The position numbers were made by a program, and so were the translations under genes. Shown here one piece after another: positions 3,178 to 7,533 of a stretch of 40,867 nucleotides of DNA; within the stretch, counting starts at the first letter, position 1, and each line of letters starts with the position of its first letter. The DNA comes from Eledone cirrhosa (lineage: Eukaryota), in NCBI GenBank assembly GCA_964016885.1, contig CAXHJY010001265.1, positions 1-40,867 of the forward strand, read 5' to 3'. Under the pieces are notes generated by a model that was not told the DNA's origin, ran no database searches, and worked only from the letters and a program-made list of their open reading frames with translations.

Positions 3178-3541
3178 TTTGTTATACTTTGGGAGGGCCA
3201 TGTTGCCAATAAGAAACACACGCACCGGTTGCTTTCACTTCAATTTATTATAATAAATTTATAATAAATTTATAATTTTCTGGTTGGTTGGTTGGTTCCA
3301 CAACCAGATAGTTGTTTATATATTGTCATAGTTCTTTCGTCAAACACTCTGTGACCTCTTCAGTGACTGGGGATTCCTTTCTTTGTTTCTGTGCCTCTCC
3401 TTTGTTCTGTCCTACGCCATTTTGTTTCTGTCCTTTTTTTGTTTCTTATTGGCAACATGACCCTCCCAAAGTATAACAATATCGATTTTAACACACGATT
3501 TCAGATAAAGAATCTTGCTAAACAAATTCAGAAACGAAATA
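3178..3541. mobile_element. Truncated Penelope-like element (family A), 3' region with an inverted terminal segment
   Basis: 3178-3430 matches 5850-6100. 3440-3541 is an inverted copy of the 3' end plus a ~60-bp extension matching 5788-5849. Flanked by (TA)n on both sides. Confidence 0.8.
3325..3367 (-). ncRNA. Minimal hammerhead ribozyme motif (family A)
   Basis: GUCA-CUGAAGA-GGUCACAGAGUGUUUGAC-GAA-AGAACU-A-UGAC. Confidence 0.65.
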
Positions 3542-4752
3542 TATATATATATATATATATTTATATATATATATATTTATATATATTTATATATATATAT
3601 ATTTATATATATTTATATATATTTATATATATATATTTATATATATTTATATATATTTATATATATTTATATATATATATATATATATATATATATATAT
3701 ATATATATATATTTATTTATATATATTTATATTTATATATATTTATATATATATATATTTATATTTATATATATATATATTTATATATATATTTATATAT
3801 ATATATTTATATATATATATATATATTTATATCTATTTATATATATATATATATATTTATATATCTATTTATATATATATATATATATTTATATATATAT
3901 TTATATATATATATATATTTATATATATATATATATTTATATATATATTTATATATATATTTATATATATATTTATATATATATTTATATATATATTTAT
4001 ATATATATTTATATATATATTTATATATATATTTATATATATATATATATATTTATATATATGTATATTTATATATATTTATATATATTTATATATATTT
4101 ATATTTATATATATTTATATATATATATATATATATATATATATATATATATATATATATATATATATATATATATATATTTATATATATATATATATAT
4201 ATATATTTATATATATATATATATATATATATATATATATATATTTATATATTTATATATATATATTTATATATATATATTTATATATATATATTTATAT
4301 ATATATATTTATATATATATATTTATATATATATATATTTATATATATATATATATATATATATATATATATATATTTATATATATATATTTATATATAT
4401 ATATTTATATATTTATATATATATATATTTATATTTATATATATATATTTATATATATATATTTATATATATTTATATATATATATTTATATATATATAT
4501 TTATATATATTTATATATATATATTTATATATATATATATATATATATTTATATATATATTTATATATATTTATATATATATATATTTATATATATATTT
4601 ATATATATTTATATATATATATATTTATATATATTTATATATATATATATTTATATATATATATATATATATATATATTTATATATATATTTATATATAT
4701 TTATATATATATATATTTATATATATATATATATATATATTTATATATATAT
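3540..4752. repeat. 1.2-kb interrupted (TA)n tract
   Basis: TA repeat with a local 12-bp higher-order unit tttatatatata around 3930-4040. Confidence 0.98.
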
Positions 4753-4920
4753 CAGGATGAATTCAGTTTGAAACTGGTTAGCCAATTACTCAAGAGTACT
4801 CGATACTTGGGGTAGTATCGTATGGTTATAGTATAAGGAGTCGGAGCCCGACGGCTGAGCTCTTGCTATATTTCAACAGCTAGTTCTAGACTCTTCCTAG
4901 AACAGTCTGGAACTAGCTGC
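4753..4920 (-). mobile_element. (TA)n-abutting repeat family D, probable PLE terminus, with internal hairpin
   Basis: Shares gagtactc(g/a)atactt(g/a)gggtagta with 12801-13149 and 28650-28727, and cccgacggctgagctc with 12801-13149. Hairpin cagctagttctagact/agtctggaactagctg. Confidence 0.55.
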
Positions 4921-5996
4921 TATATTATTGTTGAAAAACTGGGGCGGTAGGGGTACAAATGTACAAATGAAAAAAAATATATATATTTGATCAGTTTAAT
5001 TTTACTGTTTCTTCACCAATGGTCATTTAGCCCATTCTACCCTATCTGACCATCACAACAAAACCTCCAATATCATTCTCACTCTATCACATTTTCATCT
5101 TAGTTTTCACTTTCCTATCATCCAAAAATGACATGTACCCTATTTTGATTTAGACTTCTTCATTTATATATATTCTCTTATCACTCTACTCACACTATCA
5201 CCCACTCTCTCTCCCCCTCCCCCTCCCTCTCTCTCTCTTTCTCTTTCTTTCTCTCTCTCTTTCTCTCTTTCTTTCTCTCTCTTTCCCTTTCACTCACTCA
5301 CTCACTCACTCACTCACTCACTCCACACTCACTCTCTCCACACTCACTCATCATCATCAATAGACCTATCGCTGAATACCAGAATATTCCCCAGGAAGTA
5401 AGGACTTATTGTAGAGATTTGAACTATTAAAGAAACCAAACACCAGTGAAGTCACCCCCCCCTCTCTCTAAAAGAGAGAGAGAGAGACGGAGAGTGAATA
5501 TGAAGGATGTAAAGAATAGACGAGCGAGAGCTATGAAAGGATAGTGAGAGAATGTGACGAAAGGAGAGATGTAACGAAAGATATAGAGAATAAAGACTTA
5601 CATGCCAACACGAGCAAGAATGAGGGGCTCATTTTACTGACATGGCTTTAAAAATGAGGCTTGTTTGCATAATTGCAAACGAATCGAATATTATTATTAA
5701 TATTCGAAAAACTCAGATTACATTTTTTGTATTCAGCCATGTAGAGCGAAAAAAAAAAATGTTTTTAAAATTATATATATATATATATATTTCGTTTCTG
5801 AATTTGTTTAGCAAGATTCTTTATCTGAAAACGTGTGTTGAAACCGATGTTGTTATACTTTGGGAGGGTCATGTTGCCAATAAGAAACACACGCACCAGT
5901 TGCTTTCACTTCAATTTATTATAATAAATTTATAAATTTAGGAATTTATAAATTTCCGGTTGGTTGGTTCCACAACCAGATGATTGTTTATATATT

Positions 5997-6039
5997 GTCA
6001 AAGTTCTTTCGTCACACATTCTGTGACCTCTTCAGTGAC
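5997..6039 (-). ncRNA. Minimal hammerhead ribozyme motif (family A)
   Basis: GUCA-CUGAAGA-G-GUCACA-GAAUG-UGUGAC-GAA-AGAACU-U-UGAC; same sense as the adjacent GIY-YIG fragment. Confidence 0.7.
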
Positions 6040-6220
6040 TGGCGATTCTTTTCTTTGTTTTTGTGCCTCTCCTTTGTTCTGTCCTACGCCATCTTGTTTT
6101 TGTGTGTGTTGTGTGCTTAGTTTGCGCATGTTACATCCGGGTGTCTGTGTGTGTTTATATTTATTTACATGTTACTGGTTGTTTGTTTGTTCTATGTGCG
6201 TGTGTGTTTTCATTTTGTCC

Positions 6221-6416
6221 TTAATTGTAAGTTGTGATGTTGCTGTTCCATTCATATTTTCTATTTAATTTTGGTTGGAGTTCATTTATGTTTATTGCCT
6301 CTGTGATTTGTCTAAACATTGCGTCTTTTCTGTGTGTAGATTCTATTTTTATTTCTATGTTCTCTAATTTACCCTTATGTTCTATTTTAGCATGTTGGTA
6401 GAGTACAGACGATTCT
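6221..6416 (-). pseudogene. Inverted second copy of the GIY-YIG fragment
   Basis: Minus strand reads ...RQITEAININELQPKLNRKYEWNSNITTYN*. Confidence 0.8.
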
Positions 6417-6419
6417 AGG

Positions 6420-6656
6420 GAACGGATAAATGAACACTGGCGAGACCTTCAAGATAGTAAAGAATCGTCTGTATTCTACCAACATGCTAAAATAGAACAT
6501 AAGGGTAAATTAGAGAACATAGAAATAAAAATAGAATCTACACACAGAAAAGACGCAATGTTTAGACAAATCACAGAGGCAATAAACATAAAAGAATTAC
6601 AACCAATATTAAATAGAAAACATGAGTGGAACAGCAACATCACAACTTACAATTAA
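6420..6656 (+). pseudogene. C-terminal fragment of a Penelope-type GIY-YIG endonuclease
   Basis: Manual translation ERINEHWRDLQDSKESSVFYQHAKIEHKGKLENIEIKIESTHRKDAMFRQITEAINIKELQPILNRKHEWNSNITTYN*. Shows the R-x-x-EH, H-x4-H, R-x3-EA-x-x-I and LN-x-K-x-EW motifs of PLE endonucleases. No start codon (5'-truncated). Confidence 0.85.
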
Positions 6657-6839
6657 GGACAAAATGAAAACACACACGCACATAGAACAAACAACCAACC
6701 AGTAACATGTAAATAAACAAATATAAACACACACACACACCCGGATGTAACATGCGCAAACTAAGCACACAACACACAAAAACAAGATGGCGTAGGACAG
6801 AACAAAGGAGAGGCACAAAATCAAAGAAAAGAATCCCCA

Positions 6840-6882
6840 GTCACTGAAGAGATCACAGAATGTGTGACGAAAGAACTTTGAC
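6840..6882 (+). ncRNA. Minimal hammerhead ribozyme motif (family A)
   Basis: CTGAAGA at 6844-6850, GAAA at 6869-6872, stem I gtca/tgac; about 185 nt downstream of the endonuclease stop codon. Confidence 0.7.
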
Positions 6883-7533
6883 AATATATAAACAATCATC
6901 TGGTTGTGGAACCAACCAACCTACCGGAAATTTATAAATTCCTAAATTTATTATAATAAATTGAAGTGAAAGCAACTGCTGCGTGTGTTTCTTATTGGCA
7001 ACATGATCCTCCCAAAGTATAACAATATATATATATATATATATATGAATGAATGAAAGGGTAGAGAGATAGATGATAACGAAAAGAGAAGAAAGTGTAA
7101 GAGGAGAGAAGGTTGAAAGTGTAGACAGAATATGAAGAATAGACGAGAGAGATGAAATGATAGTGAGAGAATACGAATAAAGATGTGACGAAATATAGAG
7201 AATAATGACGATGAATGAACGGATAGAGAAAGAATATGAAGAGAGTGTGCATGTAAAAATGGAGAGTCGTGGAGAGAGAGAGATGACTGTAACTAGAAGA
7301 AAAAAGCGAAGTTTTGACAAAAAGTGTTTGGTTGTGCTGTTTTAGTTTTTCTTTATATGGAAAAAGAAGCTTGTTTGTCATAGCGTGTCAAGGATAGCGA
7401 GTTACTAAAATTAGTCATTATTGATCATGTTGGTTGTTGTTGTTATTGCTTTATTTCATTTGTTTGTTTGGCATAGTGTGTGCGCGCTTTTCTCTTTGTC
7501 TCTCAGTCAGTCTGTATTTACCCATCTACATAT

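Follow-up and report, generated by a model that had tools for sequence, protein, structure and literature searches.

How does an element that breaks off at a different internal point in each insertion come to have two outer ends that recur almost to the nucleotide? The question is raised by a contig of Eledone cirrhosa (CAXHJY010001265.1; the window analyzed here is the whole stretch of 40,867 nucleotides) that holds two inverted insertions of one repeat, family A, each with one short and one longer end. A sequence-only reading of the window had explained these ends by two fixed priming positions, each annealing to TA overhangs, in a process resembling twin priming.

Ends and arms of the inverted insertions

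Each family A insertion consists of two arms, both truncated at the 5' end and joined head to head in inverted orientation within (TA)n, and both outer ends of each insertion are 3' ends of the element, going by the orientation of the open reading frame (ORF). Insertion 1 comprises a short-ended arm on the minus strand (positions 3,179–3,431), with 3' UTR, a hammerhead-like motif and an ATG, that ends at ORF nucleotide +23 against TA; a junction of 8 nt assignable to neither arm (3,432–3,439); and a long-ended arm on the plus strand (3,440–3,540) that runs from 17 nt before the ATG (3,457) to ORF nucleotide +84 against TA. In insertion 2, the long-ended arm (5,789–6,416, minus strand) contains a C-terminal GIY-YIG coding piece, the 3' UTR, the hammerhead-like motif, the ATG (5,872) and the tail, and the short-ended arm (6,417–7,025, plus strand) has its ATG at 7,003 and ends at ORF nucleotide +23 against TA. 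Degenerate (TA)n tracts lie to the left (2,599–3,178) and right (3,541–4,752) of insertion 1; insertion 2 has short tracts on either side (5,771–5,788 and 7,026–7,045), with no target-site duplication discernible. Interruptions of the TA tracts are one-sided (202 versus 2).

By exact motif search, the short-end motif occurs at 3,179–3,193 (minus) and 7,011–7,025 (plus), in both cases running into the TA tract, and again internally at 3,465–3,479 (plus) and 5,850–5,864 (minus), where the arm goes on. The long-end motif lies at 3,529–3,540 (plus) and 5,789–5,800 (minus), each time followed by (TA)n. The long end exceeds the short end by 61 nt in both insertions, which bears out the earlier description of one short end and one end about 60 bp longer; the endpoints given there were off by 0–3 nt (3,178, 3,541 and 5,786 for 3,179, 3,540 and 5,789), an acceptable deviation because the TA junction itself is ambiguous to that degree. 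The ends are constant to within 1–2 nt in two source variants, and the probability that both coincide within 2 nt is P=0.005 if 3' ends are uniform over 100 nt. That every insertion has one end of each kind counts for less, with P=0.25 for family A by itself if two sites are used equally (50:50).

The inversion points differ, as had been claimed: about 3,432–3,439 in insertion 1, with arms of 253 and 101 nt overlapping by 40 nt, versus 6,416/6,417 in insertion 2, with arms of 628 and 609 nt overlapping by 565 nt. In both, the short-ended arm extends further 5', the margin being about 210 nt for insertion 1 and 44 nt for insertion 2. The order of the ends is mirrored, insertion 1 having its short end to the left and insertion 2 to the right, and the long ends of the two loci, 2.2 kb apart, face each other. 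Searched sensitively with blastn and nhmmer, the window showed no family A copy beyond the four arms, except for a distant 29-nt match (36,605–36,633). The arms of insertion 2 differ from each other by 14 mismatches in 557 positions and by 4 indels. Six of these 14 differences fall within 35 nt (P between 0.007 and 0.03, depending on a window size that was chosen post hoc), a cluster for which a single template would be insufficient without later conversion.

The short/long pattern recurs in both inverted insertions of another repeat, family C, for which neither coding sequence nor a hammerhead indicates a Penelope-like element (PLE). The first, C1 (12,803–12,945), is a TA-flanked inverted pair with the long end on the left and the short end on the right; its arms, alone among the compared insertions of families A and C, do not overlap, and its junction carries a 22-nt palindrome. 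The second, C2 (12,984–13,148), has the same two ends, a tail of 82–84 nt and arms that overlap by 36 nt; the family C tail is thus about 83 nt long. Because C1 and C2 adjoin, they may not be independent. All four insertions, two of each family, are mixed-ended (P=0.06), and in every one of them it is the short-ended arm that extends further 5', the outcome expected if one RNA is primed twice, although this trend is not significant (P=0.10–0.32 under independence). The short/long scheme does not readily accommodate other inverted inserts associated with TA: D2 has near-equal ends, the arms of D1 are tail-to-tail, the ends of B lie about 330 nt apart, and E3 carries two unrelated extensions.

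Identity of the element and its tail

Sequence comparison identifies family A as a PLE of the EN+ type, and the Penelope assignment made earlier holds. Insertion 2 carries two C-terminal remnants of a GIY-YIG endonuclease, a right copy (6,417–6,656, plus strand; 79 codons and a stop) and a left copy (6,221–6,415, minus strand; 64 codons and a stop). An exhaustive search with the right remnant gave 114 matches at E≤0.001 (best 5.8e-13), and a profile search likewise found longer relatives, which a word-indexed search with the single remnant did not. A Pfam scan of the two remnants themselves gave no match; the GIY-YIG domain was found at E≤0.003 in 4 of 16 scanned relatives, once above the curated cut-off. 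Among the 30 relatives of at least 570 aa, 25 contain the reverse transcriptase (RT) motif YxDD and 22 a Cys linker of CX2-5CxxC-like pattern within the last 260 aa; the pattern is also present in the best match, P0001. The order in the long relatives is RT, Cys linker, C-terminal endonuclease. By tblastn, the window holds the endonuclease piece only, RT and linker having been truncated away, and the family A endonuclease is likewise C-terminal, followed by the stop and the 3' UTR. This domain order, seen in relatives at 30–56% identity, points to Neptune/Nematis, whose members (PMC8557442) share the RT, CX2-5CxxC-like linker and C-terminal endonuclease with the relatives of the remnant, and the insertion into (TA)n with family A. 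The Naiad/Chlamys clade, with an N-terminal endonuclease and no canonical hammerhead, was considered and rejected, the endonuclease of family A being C-terminal.

A minimal hammerhead-like motif at 3,325–3,367 (minus strand) in insertion 1 has a 4-bp helix I, an extra base before helix II, both as described in PMC4209133, and a non-palindromic loop III. A descriptor scan detected it also in the long arm of insertion 2 (5,997–6,039, minus strand); a third copy (6,840–6,882, plus strand), with a substitution in helix II, was missed by the scan and seen by alignment. The core was thus found in 2 of 3 copies and in none of 100 shuffles, with a descriptor that was relaxed after the motif had been seen; the first, stricter descriptor missed family A. 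Neither for the window nor for 3,290–3,400 did Rfam report a hammerhead, and the motif folds no better than shuffles. Rfam matches to microRNAs in the window stayed below the gathering scores and fell mostly on palindromes and microsatellites. The ATG of family A lies 124 nt after the putative cleavage site.

The extra stretch on the long end, 61 nt in both insertions (3,480–3,540, plus strand, and 5,789–5,849, minus strand), is confined to one arm in each and has an open frame in both copies, corresponding to putative ORF codons 8–28. The insertion-2 tail shows 4 differences from the insertion-1 tail region, 3 of them synonymous. The ATG, the open frame and these synonymous changes, rather than homology, suggest that the tail represents N-terminal codons of the ORF; the 28-aa peptide of the putative ORF start had no convincing match among the 30 long relatives (best p 0.015 and 0.03, as expected among 30). 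In the Adineta element Pen2a, pLTR plus tail likewise spans the first 22 codons (PMC3846280).

A tail on just one of two inverted pLTRs has already been published (PMC3846280, PMC8557442), so the one-short, one-long ends of family A are the described PLE tail signature, as the sequence-only reading had it, with a longer tail than usual: the published length is 30–40 nt, compared with 61 nt in family A and about 83 nt in family C. Canonical EN+ PLEs such as Adineta vaga Pen2a_Av share with family A the head-to-head inverted, 5'-truncated arms, the tail on one end and the overlap of pLTR and tail with the first ORF codons; their pLTR hammerhead and C-terminal GIY-YIG domain have counterparts in the hammerhead-like motif and the endonuclease remnant. 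Unlike in those elements, no full-length copy or target-site duplication is visible in the window.

Probable priming at two internal positions

The reading we favor as probable is that a TA-targeting PLE with a C-terminal endonuclease gave rise to both insertions, truncated at their 5' ends, by priming at two fixed internal sites; the case is drawn from two family A insertions and an in vitro precedent from a different clade. The element protein, probably as a dimer, would bind the RNA near its ORF start, and the GIY-YIG domain would nick a (TA)n tract on both strands. Each 3'-OH would prime reverse transcription at one of two protein-defined sites, ORF nucleotide +23 or +84, with no need for base-pairing with the target. 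The two cDNAs would grow toward each other, stop at variable points and be joined head to head, the second strands being filled by host repair, and the outcome would be two fixed outer ends 61 nt apart with a variable inversion point. We infer that both primings belong to one event and that the cDNAs are then joined; one RNA and two RNAs are about equally probable as template.

The precedent is Poseidon PAc of Anolis carolinensis, for which two internal RT starts bracketing the tail, and cleavage and extension of both target strands without homology to the target, were demonstrated in vitro (PMC11167929), the PLE dimer being a structure prediction only. This work supports the proposal of two fixed priming positions, which, given that demonstration, is not new. 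In both elements the two starts lie inside the beginning of the ORF with the tail between them, and the targets are AT-rich. However, PAc belongs to a different clade; it starts in an AC-rich stem-loop 111–118 nt into the ORF, as opposed to +23/+84 in family A, with no stable stem-loop upon folding (z 0.3 and 1.1); and the ATG of PAc lies inside the hammerhead instead of 124 nt past its cleavage site. A long-range hairpin that closes immediately before the long end reached pair probabilities as high as 0.99 when the insertion-1 arm was folded by itself, but about 0.3 in insertion 2 and 0.00–0.02 with upstream sequence added, and was rejected.

The likeness to twin priming is partial. In L1, as described in PMC12016303, two cDNAs arise from opposite target strands, at the poly(A) tail and at a variable internal site, in 18–22% of insertions and with a median overlap of 12 bp. 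Family A shares the geometry, in that its two cDNAs point in opposite directions and meet at their truncated 5' ends, but it lacks poly(A), both of its start sites are internal and fixed, and its overlaps are 40 and 565 nt.

A stricter version of double priming, which we regard as possible but doubtful, holds that short and long ends are obligatory, an asymmetric PLE dimer priming both strands at two sites set by the protein on one and the same RNA. At the tail end, the polymerase would trail, displacing the cDNA of the other without ever overtaking it. No paper stating such a rule was found in a literature search covering the text of freely accessible papers.

An unlikely alternative derives the ends from annealing: source copies ending at either boundary would be transcribed into their TA flank, and the (UA)n would pair with TA overhangs and prime each arm. 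On this view the two ends would be inherited boundaries. All four ends do adjoin (TA)n; the short site of the insertion-1 variant reads AUAU, which the insertion-2 short junction matches for 3 further bases, and a single A-to-T interruption, of which the tract has 42 in 580 nt, would mask the same match at the insertion-1 junction. Against this, in all three short junctions that can be set against the long arm of the same insertion (two in family A and one in family C), similarity to the sister arm ends at the boundary. Beyond this point, the long arm of insertion 2 continues with C and that of C2 with CC, and the pairing potential is at most 4 nt (AUAU), in the insertion-1 variant alone. Because the short end lies at the same place whether T or C comes next, position, not local TA sequence, sets it. 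The claim of annealing to TA overhangs finds no support at the short ends. The comparison covers short ends, no copy in the window showing sequence past the long end, and a hybrid with annealing at the long end and an internal start at the short end is possible. Annealing further leaves one end of each kind to chance in all four insertions, and initiation without homology in PMC11167929 also speaks against it.

Slightly less likely still is fold-back: priming would occur once, at the tail end, after which the cDNA (or an antisense template) would fold back and serve as its own template, and resolution of the intermediate would leave the second arm trimmed by the endonuclease at a fixed short site. 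Self-priming from palindromes at inverted junctions has been proposed (PMC3846280), as has endonuclease-mediated resolution for the tail (PMC8557442); the closeness of the insertion-2 arms, which stop within 44 nt of each other, and the palindrome at the C1 junction are compatible with such a course. With a sense template, however, the tail-bearing first arm should reach furthest 5', and the reverse holds in all four insertions, by about 210 nt in insertion 1; the C1 arms have no overlap at all, and later deletion of the palindrome center would need to strike the long arm every time.

The two loci do not represent one segmental duplication, in agreement with the sequence-only reading: in a three-way count on 207 of about 250 columns, a misaligned low-complexity stretch being left out, both insertion-2 arms agree against insertion 1 at 9 sites, and self-BLAST found no flank common to the loci. 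That segmental duplication or inversion nonetheless produced both from one insertion, or that the palindromes arose as artefacts of assembly or of fold-back in the reads, is very improbable and largely refuted by these results, by the differing inversion points and arm lengths, by the 14 substitutions and 4 indels between the insertion-2 arms and by tail differences that are mostly synonymous, as different active sources would give, even though the loci are merely 2.2 kb apart with long ends facing and the one-sided tract interruptions could be a sequencing bias.

Implications for Penelope-like elements

The locus displays a known PLE signature cleanly in a genome, and it extends the picture of two start sites, drawn from a Poseidon element, to what is probably a Neptune/Nematis family, one with a longer tail. 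In PMC8557442 and PMC11167929, the origin of the inverted pLTRs of PLEs is called open, and short inverted copies such as these permit a cheap genome-wide discrimination between double priming and fold-back. If short and long ends are indeed obligatory, a strict genomic rule would follow, namely that the short-ended arm always reaches further 5'; the family-specific tail length (61 nt in family A, about 83 nt in family C) would be a measure of how far apart the two active sites lie, and one mechanism would account for both the inverted pLTRs and the tails.

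Outer ends of the family A insertions

The window consists of eukaryotic DNA rich in microsatellites, in which one Penelope-like (PLE) family, A, contributes two insertions embedded in (TA)n, at 3179-3540 (insertion 1) and 5789-7025 (insertion 2). By self-BLAST and alignment within the window, both are made of two arms, 5'-truncated element copies, in inverted orientation. The outer ends are asymmetric in both insertions, as an earlier sequence-only reading had claimed with endpoint coordinates that proved correct to 0-3 nt: the short ends lie at 3179 and 7025; the other two, at 3540 and 5789, are long ends, which in both cases run 61 nt past the short-end position. 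With ends spread evenly over 100 nt, a coincidence of both within 2 nt would have P=0.005. Outside the four arms, the window contains no family A sequence except a 29-nt remote relative at 36605-36633 (86%, E 7e-5), which spans the ATG and whose similarity ends at the short-end position.

Endonuclease remnant, hammerhead-like motif and tail

The centre of insertion 2 holds a stop-terminated open frame, found in both arms. The orientation follows from this frame: in either insertion the arms are placed head to head, and each outer end is a 3' end of the element. For the 79-aa remnant of the right copy, 114 relatives pass E<=0.001, the strongest with 5.8e-13. Pfam GIY-YIG was matched by 4 of the 16 relatives scanned, one of them exceeding the curated cut-off, and was not matched by the remnant itself; a profile search yielded 28 longer proteins. 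An RT YxDD motif is present in 25 of the 30 relatives of at least 570 aa, and 22 of the 30 show a Cys-rich linker pattern close to their C-terminus. A C-terminal GIY-YIG combined with such a linker characterises Neptune and Nematis PLEs (PMC8557442). The relatives suggest this placement for family A, indirectly, because the RT and the linker are truncated away in the window copies.

Downstream of the stop, the arm has a UTR stretch of ~180 nt, then a hammerhead-like motif of minimal type and an ATG 124 nt past the predicted cleavage site. The motif shows two traits described for PLE hammerheads (PMC4209133), a helix I of 4 bp and an additional base ahead of helix II, whereas loop III is not palindromic. 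A relaxed descriptor, adopted after the first had missed family A, recovered the motif from 2 of the 3 copies and from none of 100 shuffles; the motif has no Rfam match, and its folding is not better than that of shuffles. In ORF coordinates, the short end is nt +23 and the long end nt +84, and both tails (the extra stretch of the long-ended arm) are open in frame, with 3 of their 4 differences synonymous. Because the encoded peptide has no convincing match among the 30 long relatives, we only infer that the tail is the ORF start; this agrees with Adineta Pen2a, in which pLTR plus tail cover 22 codons (PMC3846280).

Other inverted inserts and repeats in the window

Family C, which its geometry suggests to be a PLE, forms two adjacent TA-flanked inverted insertions, C1 (12803-12945, arms non-overlapping, a 22-nt palindrome at the junction) and C2 (12984-13148); arms related to these occur singly at 4753-4880 and 28627-28727. 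C1 and C2, which may be related by duplication, have both ends in common, the long one lying 82-84 nt beyond the short one, an asymmetry as in family A. Across both families, ends are mixed in 4 of 4 insertions (P=0.06), and in all four it is the arm with the short end that extends more towards 5', the excess being ~210 and 44 nt in A and at least 10 nt in C. Since independent arms would give the latter pattern with P=0.10-0.32, we treat this trend as a lead only.

The A/C end pattern is not simply present in the five other inverted inserts checked (B, D1, D2, E1 and E3). Family B (2042-2598, with pieces at 1744-1800 and 1922-1980) lies in the same TA array as insertion 1. Its long arm is ~450 nt, and its ends are ~330 nt apart. 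Near 2200-2245 (-) there is a hammerhead-like motif, recognised on visual inspection and missed by the scans, and the short arm stops upstream of it. Scans gave hammerhead motifs in families D (21920-22189, 28856-28997) and E (29011-29351, with 8042-8200 and 28473-28602). One D palindrome (D1) is tail-to-tail with hammerheads inward; the second (D2) is head-to-head, has ends that are almost equal and is centred within helix II. E1 is without TA flanks. In E3 (29011-29351), the inverted arms become two unrelated extensions past a shared point, one recurring at 8042-8200 and the other at 28473, with a 57-nt tandem repeat in the centre, which suggests one event drawing on two different template segments.

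Positions 1-4752 form a ~4.7 kb degenerate (TA)n array with several inserts; its interruptions are nearly all of one polarity (202 vs 2), which may stem from a strand bias of mutation or from an artefact of sequencing. Self-BLAST detected further repeats. The segment 35453-36124, with a ~160-nt direct repeat (82%), TA-rich flanks and a hammerhead-like motif at 35786-35721 (-), is possibly a partial-tandem PLE-type insert, and the TA-flanked segment 25372-25990, with an 82-nt direct repeat at both ends (99%), possibly another. A 44-nt inverted repeat (23946-23989/24211-24254, 91%) encloses a segment bearing TA/CA/GA microsatellites. The degenerate direct repeat at 5504-5597 and 7127-7209 (79%) flanks insertion 2 at ~190 and 100 nt and is not a target-site duplication. 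An abundant ~190-nt SINE-like repeat, presumably typical of octopus genomes and thereby hinting at a cephalopod source for the DNA, often forms short tandems (9019-9624, 21191-21386, 27035-27619, 31777-31966, 32503-33298, 36990-38364, 39756-39942).

Proposed priming and joining of the arms

The best supported model, which we consider reasonably probable, is a double nick of (TA)n with two protein-defined internal starts. Both (TA)n strands would be nicked, each nicked strand would prime cDNA at one of the two sites, and the truncated cDNAs would be joined head to head. The sequence-only reading had taken two fixed priming positions to anneal to TA overhangs, and annealing via (UA)n read-through seems to us doubtful. 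The insertion-1 variant could pair over at most 4 nt and would suit the insertion-2 short junction, and a match at insertion 1 could be masked by one A-to-T interruption, a change that occurs 42 times in the 580-nt tract. However, the match stops at the boundary in all three short junctions comparable with their own long arm (two in family A, one in C), and in the insertion-2 long arm a C follows the short-end position, so that the short end is placed identically with or without TA-like sequence. Fold-back with endonuclease trimming is also unlikely, as it predicts a 5' reach opposite to that seen.

Least credible by far is a duplication or artefact. The two loci share no flank (self-BLAST, window) and differ in arm lengths, left-right order and, as previously noted from the sequence, inversion points, which speaks against one segmental duplication as their source. 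In a three-way arm comparison over 207 cleanly aligned sites, with a low-complexity stretch excluded, 9 sites set insertion 1 apart from both insertion-2 arms (private: right arm 4, left arm 1). The insertion-2 arms differ at 14 of 557 sites and by 4 indels, too many for read fold-back. By these comparisons, the loci are two insertions from two source variants.

Under the double-nick model, one RNA would account for the mixed ends and the 5'-reach trend and would require strand displacement across overlaps of 40 and 565 nt. Two RNAs would account for the clustering of 6 of the 14 insertion-2 differences in 35 nt (P=0.007-0.03, interval picked afterwards), where Leu is kept despite two changes within one codon; later gene conversion could as well. 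The proposed likeness to L1 twin priming (PMC12016303) holds for the geometry but not for the defining features, given that family A is without poly(A), the second site is fixed and the overlap is long. In the text of open-access papers, we found neither twin priming nor a 5'-reach rule invoked for PLEs.

The portions available of the retrozyme preprint 10.64898/2026.07.22.740005 and of PMC13282606 add nothing on tails. Other sources describe an optional 31-bp tail on one of the inverted pLTRs (PMC3846280), 30-40-bp tails often at one end only, together with (TA)n targeting (PMC8557442), and inverted pLTRs and short 3' extensions as routine for such elements (PMC8969392). Unequal ends have been published before, and so has the use of two fixed starts, the latter in vitro for an anole Poseidon element (PMC11167929); the only additions here are longer tails and a possible polarity rule, by which the short-ended arm would reach further 5'.
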